Sequence record: OP557969.1
Source: Escherichia phage ph0011
Length of the DNA: 64,000 nt
Strand: one strand, 5' to 3'
Under the pieces are notes generated by a model. That model worked only from the letters and a program-made list of their open reading frames with translations. It had not been told where the DNA came from and made no database searches. Position numbers and translations under genes: made by a program. Below, piece by piece: positions 46,740 to 46,830 of this stretch (the first letter of the stretch is position 1; each line of letters starts with the position of its first letter).

Positions 46740-46830
46740 GGAAGGGTGGCAGAGCGGTTGATTGCACTCGCCTACTAAGCGAGCAAGTGTTAGAAATAAC
46801 GCTTCGTGGGTTCAAATCCCACCTCTTTCG
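46740..46830 (+). tRNA. Ser-type (type II) tRNA with atypical anticodon loop (reads as ACT by eye)
   Basis: Acceptor GGAAGGG/CTCTTTC (2 G-U), D-arm near-identical to tRNA-Ser(TGA), anticodon stem CTCGC/GCGAG loop CTACTAA, 6-bp variable-arm stem, T-arm GTGGG-TTCAAAT-CCCAC. Confidence 0.55.

Follow-up and report, generated by a model that had tools for sequence, protein, structure and literature searches.

A conserved tRNA-Ser gene with anticodon ACU in Asteriusvirus phages and its probable role as an AGU-specific serine decoder

In a stretch of 64,000 nucleotides (nt) from Escherichia phage ph0011 (sequence record OP557969.1; this whole stretch is called the window below), we found a tRNA-Ser gene whose anticodon is ACU, that is, a serine tRNA with adenosine at the wobble position 34 (A34) in the codon box that is split between serine and arginine. 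The window is 91% to 97% identical to the Escherichia jumbo phages 121Q, PBECO4, WPEC3, Turkey3 and JP4 of the genus Asteriusvirus, and is part of a 121Q/PBECO4-like Asteriusvirus genome. The explanation which we regard as the best, with a probability of roughly 0.65, is that the gene encodes a functional phage tRNA-Ser(ACU) with unmodified A34, serving as an AGU-specific serine decoder and standing in the Asteriusvirus group as an alternative or an addition to the phage tRNA-Ser(GCU).

The proposed mechanism would run as follows. A consensus sigma-70 promoter of its own would drive the gene, probably along with the tRNA-Met gene that follows it, and the transcript would be processed and receive its CCA end from the host enzyme. 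Seryl-tRNA synthetase (SerRS) of the host would charge it by recognising the long variable arm, the discriminator base G73 and pairs of the acceptor and D stems, and not the anticodon. In E. coli A34 would most likely stay unmodified, as the loop CUACUAA differs from YUACGAA at position 36, and the tRNA would then pair in Watson-Crick fashion with AGU only. AGU is the serine codon which the phage uses most, and the host would cover it solely by G-U wobble of its tRNA-Ser(GCU).

A serine-type tRNA gene with anticodon ACU

ARAGORN found seven tRNA genes on the + strand at 43.6-48.0 kb of the window, one of which was called as a type II tRNA-Ser with anticodon act at 46740-46831 (+ strand; anticodon at gene position 35). 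Infernal matched 46740-46830 over the full length of the Rfam model RF00005 (model positions 1-71) with 49.9 bits (E = 1e-8) in comparison to a gathering score of 29, and no non-canonical pairs were flagged in this match. A software check had been set beforehand in the preliminary description of this DNA, by which a canonical serine or leucine anticodon or a low covariance score would speak against the ACU call; no such anticodon was called, and the covariance score lies above the threshold.

The bases of the acceptor stem, GGAAGGG/CTCTTTC, read directly, include G-U pairs at 2:71 and 6:67. The D stem consists of three pairs (GCA/TGC), the anticodon stem is formed by CTCGC (46767-46771) with GCGAG (46779-46783), and the T stem is GTGGG/CCCAC; the discriminator G73 at 46830 is followed by C74 and then AAA. 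The anticodon loop CTACTAA at 46772-46778 (+ strand) comprises C32, T33, A34, C35, T36, A37 and A38 by direct reading, appears as a 7-nt loop in the Infernal alignment, and holds the anticodon ACT at 46774-46776, and the earlier reading of the loop, with its A34 anticodon, proved exact. The long variable arm of 22 nt (46784-46805, + strand) is an insertion in comparison to the Rfam tRNA model; in an unconstrained fold it forms a stem of 8 base pairs (bp), AAGTGTTA/TAACGCTT (46785-46792 with 46797-46804), closed by a GAAA loop, and not the stem of 6 bp which had been described at first. This arm is the main class II (serine) feature of the tRNA. The unconstrained minimum free energy fold of the whole gene is a cloverleaf of -29.7 kcal/mol, and all stems pair in both the Infernal match and the fold. 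The stretch 46740-46831 is a well-formed type II tRNA gene with a canonical 7-nt loop, CUACUAA, and the anticodon ACU.

The isotype name given by ARAGORN rests on the anticodon only, and the body was therefore tested independently by profile hidden Markov models for Ser, Leu and Tyr, which were built from phage tRNAs bearing other anticodons. The tRNA of the window scored 51.6 bits with the Ser profile in comparison to 12.3 bits with Leu and 13.7 bits with Tyr, which bears out the earlier assignment to the Ser-type (type II) tRNAs. The Ser profile was also the best one for all 171 of the 171 ACU tRNAs tested, viral and cellular, among the matches listed. The identity elements of E. coli SerRS comprise G73, G1:C72, G2:C71, A3:U70 and C11:G24. 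In the tRNA of the window G73, G1:C72, A3:U70 and C11:G24 are found, while the pair 2:71 is G-U instead of G:C. On the profile scores, the body is predicted, without use of the anticodon, to be of the serine type.

The gene is identical at 92/92 nt in phages 121Q, UB, G17 and slurp01, in comparison to 90% to 92% identity of the next open reading frame (ORF; 47107-47364) in the same phages and 88% to 90% identity of the upstream spacer in 121Q and G17; this spacer of 61 nt aligns in UB and slurp01 over 39 nt only, all of them identical. Altogether 16 cultured phages carry tRNA-Ser(ACU) at 97.8% to 100% identity over the tRNA and its flanks. Phage EJP2 holds a diverged copy (L003, 5015-5104), which has the same anticodon stem-loop as the window and encodes CCA, and which differs in the acceptor, variable and T arms, with double compensatory changes at the pairs 1:72 and 7:66. 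Judged from these comparisons, the gene is under purifying selection, and neither the broken stems nor the loss of conservation relative to the flanks that would mark a pseudogene were found. As a separate observation on the EJP2 copy, its variable-arm stem, CTCGC/GCGAG, has the sequence of the anticodon stem, and its T stem contains an A-C mismatch at 50:64.

In comparison to the other serine tRNA genes of the window, the gene is identical at 60/92 positions to Ser(TGA) and at 56/94 positions to Ser(GCT), and for this reason it did not arise from either of them by recent duplication or by point mutation. The view of it as a duplicated Ser-like tRNA with a D-arm almost identical to that of Ser(TGA) is therefore kept only loosely: the tRNA is Ser-like, and 14 of 17 D-arm positions match, but it shares only about 60-65% identity with the two remaining Ser genes and is no recent duplicate. 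A blastn search of the gene against 5,426 complete E. coli genomes gave zero matches, which shows that the gene does not belong to the host or to a prophage and that its divergence from the serine tRNAs of the host exceeds the reach of blastn. The Klebsiella RaK2-like relatives hold only GCT and TGA serine tRNAs and no ACU.

The wider ACU family, tRNA-Ser(GCU) and codon usage

To look for related genes, viral contigs of IMG/VR were searched with a pattern of Ser-type D-loop and T-loop motifs plus the fixed loop CTACTAA, which gave at least 120 matches. Since this loop and some of the D-loop and T-loop positions are fixed in the patterns, the family counts below are lower bounds drawn from a biased sample; the viral contigs are metagenomic predictions, and the locus statistics treat loci as independent. 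Of the 128 viral loci among the matches listed from two pattern scans, 127 gave an ARAGORN call of a type II act tRNA, which makes at least 127 further viral Ser-type ACU tRNAs, placed in many different tRNA-array contexts. The same pattern gave 47 stretches in bacteria and archaea, where 185,579 species were represented by a single genome each; 44 of the 47 contain a long-arm act tRNA according to ARAGORN. When 30 metagenomic ACU cluster representatives were compared by megablast with 50,697 cultured-phage records, one weak match was obtained, and Asteriusvirus is consequently the only cultured carrier which could be identified. Some matches of 73% identity in Synechococcus phages were considered as further ACU cases and rejected: in the one record examined, that of S-SM2, this stretch holds only an ordinary UCA tRNA-Ser, offset from the aligned segment.

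Clustering at 80% core identity divides the 135 unique ACU sequences among the matches listed, viral and cellular, into 64 groups. Positions of the acceptor, anticodon and T stems are paired in 96% to 100% of these sequences (the pair 27:43 in 88%), mostly with 3 to 6 pair types per stem position, so that the stems covary, and G73 is present in 121 of the 135. The family also agrees with a control set of 131 Ser(TGA) tRNAs in G1:C72, G2:C71, A3:U70, C11:G24 and a D stem of 3 bp with G13/A22.

The results further showed that ACU tRNAs mostly replace, and do not accompany, tRNA-Ser(GCU). Among the matches listed, a Ser(gct) gene lies beside ACU in 4 of 127 ACU-anchored viral loci in comparison to 31 of 117 Ser(tga)-anchored loci (Fisher p = 9e-8). 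In the Ser(tga)-anchored sample ACU occurs in 2 of 117 loci, which is about 6% of the phage AGY decoders among the matches listed. The Asteriusvirus-like genomes divide in the same manner by our tally, with ACU only in about 13 (such as 121Q, G17 and slurp01), GCU only in about 17 (such as PBECO4 and BF17), and both in 4 plus the window.

With regard to codon usage, AGT is the top serine codon in the 86 long ORFs of the window at 23.0 per 1000 codons, in comparison to 3.7 for AGC, 8.6 for AGA and 2.3 for AGG, and AGT makes up 86% of AGY in these ORFs. Of the two AGY codons, E. coli favours AGC, and the product of its only tRNA-Ser(GCU) gene reads AGU by G-U wobble. Across the viral loci AGT was more frequent with ACU than with GCU (17.9 and 13.3 per 1000, respectively; p = 0.0016, phylogeny not corrected), a difference that gives weak support to a demand for AGU decoding.

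Co-occurrence of other A34 tRNAs was examined as a possible hint of a broad-specificity deaminase. Such tRNAs are sporadic in the 127 ACU viral loci (Leu-aag in 7, Arg-acg in 5, Phe-aaa in 3, Asp-atc in 3, Thr-agt in 1 and Ser-aga in 1). Over the phage arrays L004-L131 and L179-L297, sporadic A34 calls in split boxes were made by ARAGORN for Phe(aaa), Asp(atc) and His(atg).

Several observations concern the cellular copies. Isolate genomes of Polynucleobacter carry tRNA-Ser(act), one strain on four contigs (the loci of Polynucleobacter and related Betaproteobacteria are L134-L136, L159, L164, L168, L169, L172, L175, L176 and L178). Some copies of the Polynucleobacter group, e.g., L134, have unpaired acceptor halves, as is expected for integration junctions, and in L159 the Ser(act) gene lies between a gene for a P63C-domain (phage-type) protein and ordinary cellular genes. 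In metagenome-assembled genomes of DPANN-type archaea (L143, L153, L155 and L171) Ser(act) lies 0.3-1 kb from a Ser(gct) to which it is 82% to 88% identical, and in L171 it stands on a 985-kb contig with the cellular neighbours GNAT, SLOG/LOG-like and purD-like. By these likenesses the DPANN Ser(act) looks like an independent chromosomal origin through duplication and a G34A change, although archaea are said to be without any A34 tRNAs.

The tRNA region around the gene

A putative sigma-70-type promoter, TTGACT-17-TATAAT with an extended -10, lies at 46701-46729 (+ strand), agrees with the consensus at 11 of 12 positions, and stops 10 nt 5' of tRNA-Ser(ACU). It is the best promoter-like site within 45600-47300. 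The 29-mer is present in three copies in the window, at 45050 (exact), at 45809 (one mismatch, before the Ser-GCT gene) and at 46701, in comparison to zero copies expected by chance. A tRNA-Met(CAT) gene at 46839-46913 (+ strand; ARAGORN, Rfam 68.4 bits) follows 7 nt 3' of tRNA-Ser(ACU), the promoter scan reported no promoter-like site in the 7-nt gap, and the two genes are probably co-transcribed.

The canonical AGY decoder, tRNA-Ser(GCT), lies at 45844-45933 (+ strand; ARAGORN and promoter alignment). It stands behind the same promoter and is an alternative allele or paralogue of Ser(ACU) in the Asteriusvirus group. Between the two genes sits an ORF of 174 amino acids (aa) for an HNH homing endonuclease (46154-46678, + strand; Pfam NUMOD4 3.5e-11 and HNH_3 3.7e-07), which gave no alignment in 121Q, G17, slurp01 and EJP2 and aligned over 94 of 525 nt only in UB. 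The window also encodes a phage tRNA-Arg(UCU), as called by ARAGORN.

The tRNA alleles downstream (46839-48038) are mosaic among near-identical phages, in that the Thr(tgt) of the window shares only 61% to 63% identity with its counterparts in 121Q and slurp01, and at the matching place G17 carries other Met and Asn tRNA genes. At 43828-44314, shortly 3' of the tRNA genes Ser(TGA) and Arg(TCT), there are three tandem paralogous ORFs of 54 aa, each beginning with MTHEEWM.

The exact promoter copy at 45050-45078 is followed by about 350 nt without a convincing ORF, up to 45432, with a hairpin and a run of eight T at the end. Conservation of this stretch is 97% to 99% within Asteriusvirus and about 81% in Klebsiella RaK2/K64-1, whose records give it no annotation; T4-like phages of Proteus, Morganella and Shigella have unannotated DNA that matches its first approximately 190 nt at 84% to 93% identity. 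Its fold z-score is -2.3, and no Rfam match was found at E <= 1. The segment 45050-45432 is a candidate for a conserved phage non-coding RNA within the tRNA region.

Decoding by A34, alternative explanations and significance

An adenosine at position 34 in the Ser-Arg split box is unusual, as had been noted at first sight: Ehrlich et al. 2021 state that A34 is universally missing from this box and that phages are without the same prohibited genes (PMC8007984). Bacterial TadA requires a UACG core on a stem (PMC12255301; PMC13170351), and it edits only YUACGAA loops, of which mutations at single motif positions abolish or nearly abolish mRNA editing (PMC12255301). The loop CUACUAA matches this motif at 6 of 7 positions, with U and not G at position 36, and thus departs from what TadA recognises. 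Schmitt, Tittle and Fisk 2024 placed ACU in a CU-ACU-AA loop of an orthogonal M. jannaschii tRNA-Tyr in E. coli and found no inosine; this tRNA read AGU at 9.4% and AGG at 0.36%, with AGC and AGA below detection (PMC11066159). A tblastn search of the Asteriusvirus genomes (E <= 1e-3, with E. coli TadA as the query) gave no TadA homologue. On these grounds A34 would be unmodified and would read AGU specifically, and with A34 in place of G34 the tRNA is expected to read AGU only, and not AGU together with AGC. By analogy with the engineered tRNA, the misreading of AGA by inosine, on which the case against split-box A34 usually rests, would not arise in this host.

Several points weigh against this interpretation. 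The Rfam score of tRNA-Ser(ACU) is the lowest among the seven tRNAs of the cluster, the acceptor stem has a second G-U pair at 6:67 besides G2-U71, which replaces the G2:C71 that is usual in the ACU family and is cited as an identity element of E. coli SerRS, and the gene encodes C74 only and not the full CCA. The results on decoding and inosine were obtained with the body of an archaeal tRNA-Tyr and are carried over to tRNA-Ser(ACU) by analogy, and Boren 1993 and Chen 2002, in the form in which PMC11066159 cites them, show that in G/C-rich boxes the reading of A34 can extend to other bases. The ratio AGT/(AGT+AGC) is 0.68 in ACU-bearing and 0.67 in GCU-bearing viral loci (p = 0.57), and because it is equal in both groups, codon bias alone does not explain A34 over G34. 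The other split boxes of the NNY type in the same arrays keep G34, with Phe-aaa and Asp-atc in 3 of 127 each, which leaves the preference for serine unexplained. Expression, serylation, the lack of inosine, an N6-threonylcarbamoyl modification of A37 (t6A37) and AGU-only decoding are moreover steps that we infer.

The alternative that survives best concerns defence. It is reportedly the concept of van den Berg et al. 2023 that a nuclease cuts the cognate host tRNA and that the phage tRNA resists through a change in its anticodon loop. Applied here, A34 would be a counter-defence allele which escapes a tRNase of the host or of a competitor recognising tRNA-Ser(GCU), and homing endonucleases would shuffle such alleles between phages. 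This would suit the distribution of ACU only, GCU only or both among close relatives, the mosaic tRNA region (the Thr(tgt), Met and Asn alleles above) and the HNH gene between the two AGY tRNAs, and changes in the anticodon loops of phage tRNAs have been proposed or shown to evade tRNases (PMC10264068). We nevertheless consider it improbable, as our literature search found no nuclease of E. coli specific for tRNA-Ser(GCU), elsewhere the loop has the ordinary context CU-NNN-AA, A34 alters decoding and is therefore not a silent escape, and ACU recurs in very different phages and some cellular genomes, which a decoding role fits more simply. A more elaborate form of this idea, which we hold to be just as doubtful or slightly more so, is an arms race over ACU and GCU, in which a hypothetical anticodon nuclease directed at Ser(GCU), from a defence system of the host or from a competitor, selects a replacement by A34 that it would fail to recognise, and endonucleases of the HNH type move promoter-tRNA cassettes; if true, it would explain why A34 occurs specifically in the Ser AGY box and why close relatives have ACU, GCU or both.

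Were A34 converted to inosine, whether through host TadA accepting a near-cognate loop or through a different deaminase, the tRNA would become a broader AGY decoder that reads AGU and AGC and weakly AGA, with some ambiguity of arginine to serine. The loop does share 6 of 7 positions with the TadA motif and stands on a stable stem of 5 bp, 29% of the sites edited by TadA overexpressed in A. baylyi were one base off TACG (PMC12255301), and the phage tRNA-Arg(UCU) could compete for AGA. On the other side, an identical loop with ACU in E. coli carried no inosine and its reading of AGC and AGA was below detection (PMC11066159), single motif mutations abolish or nearly abolish editing (PMC12255301), Asteriusvirus gave no TadA homologue at the threshold above, and inosine would mistranslate AGA at 8.6 per 1000 codons of the window. 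The reading of AGU, AGC and AGA through inosine, which the preliminary description had entertained, is accordingly unlikely in E. coli, where the same loop read AGU with the selectivity given above.

There is little to recommend the view that the tRNA is cargo, neutral or selfish, which travels along with the neighbouring HNH cassette and contributes little to translation. The HNH ORF does lie immediately 5' of tRNA-Ser(ACU), the module of promoter and tRNA is repeated, and presence varies between relatives, but three relatives that lack this HNH gene, 121Q, G17 and slurp01, retain the identical tRNA, which makes such hitch-hiking unlikely; the tRNA is also invariant where its flanks diverge, and unrelated phages hold ACU tRNAs in large arrays, mostly in place of GCU. 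The chance that the gene is a decaying pseudo-tRNA, as had also been suggested, by way of a G34A mutation in a Ser(GCU) gene, is very slight. Its Rfam score, the lowest of the cluster, its two acceptor-stem G-U pairs and an anticodon normally absent from genomes (PMC8007984) would point that way, and they are outweighed by the intact stems, the 92/92 identity across relatives with diverged flanks, the 56/94 identity to the resident GCU gene, which makes it no point mutant of that gene, the compensatory changes and retained anticodon arm of the diverged EJP2 orthologue, the large covarying family, and its position as the sole AGY tRNA in about 13 phages. The amber-reading register raised with it, in which a non-canonical loop would present CUA to UAG, is barely credible: CTA does occur twice in the loop (positions 32-34 and 35-37), but the stem-loop is the standard one of 5 bp and 7 nt with U33 and A37, which puts ACU at positions 34-36, all family members share this 7-nt parse (though the search pattern fixed that loop), and TAA, TGA and TAG are ordinary stops, with TAG terminating 7 of 87 long ORFs and standard-code ORFs covering 78% of the window.

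An unmodified, AGU-specific tRNA-Ser(ACU) may be compared with several known systems. It shares with tRNA-Ser(GCU), as in E. coli serV and at 45844-45933 of the window, the type II body, a predominant G73 and the loop context CU-NCU-AA, and with the window gene the promoter and the slot in phage tRNA arrays; the differences are A34 instead of G34, an expected reading of AGU only, and the 56/94 identity to the resident gene. The engineered M. jannaschii tRNA-Tyr(ACU) has the same CUACUAA loop and the same E. coli host, and was unmodified and AGU-specific (PMC11066159), but it is a synthetic, orthogonal construct with another body and amino acid, whereas tRNA-Ser(ACU) is natural and conserved. 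The tRNA-Arg(ACG), or tRNA-Arg2, the one standard bacterial A34 tRNA and a substrate of TadA, also has A34 and 6 of 7 loop nt in common (CUACGAA and CUACUAA, respectively); it differs in that U36 of tRNA-Ser(ACU) breaks the UACG motif, that the box is a split one where inosine would miscode, and that the body is of the serine type. Encoded A34, sometimes unmodified, is further known from Mycoplasma tRNA-Thr(AGU), yeast mitochondrial tRNA-Arg(ACG) and extra A34 tRNAs of Oenococcus and Leuconostoc (PMC11066159, PMC8007984). These serve four-codon boxes, in which promiscuity is harmless, in contrast to ACU in the Ser/Arg split box.

As an annotation the gene is not new, since the label tRNA-Ser(act) already stands in the GenBank records of 121Q, G17 and slurp01; the new element is a conserved natural ACU family together with cultivable E. 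coli phages that carry it. Our literature search found no paper on Ser-ACU or Ser-ACT in phages, and the genome papers of EJP2 and JP4 do not mention the anticodon.

In general, the analysis suggests that 121Q, G17, slurp01 and UB, all of them cultivable, offer a conserved exception to textbook and review accounts, by which A34 tRNAs of split boxes are prohibited and are absent from every domain and from phages (PMC8007984). The near-complete absence of unmodified A34 tRNAs is raised as a question by Schmitt et al. 2024 (PMC11066159), and the phages would provide a natural and genetically tractable system for studying how unmodified A34 decodes in vivo and why it is otherwise avoided. The finding is relevant to annotation, and also to models that match phage and host codons by tRNA adaptation, as these take the ACU anticodon to be non-existent. 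The same system bears on what the tRNA sets of phages are for, whether the supply of codons or the escape from defences that target tRNAs.

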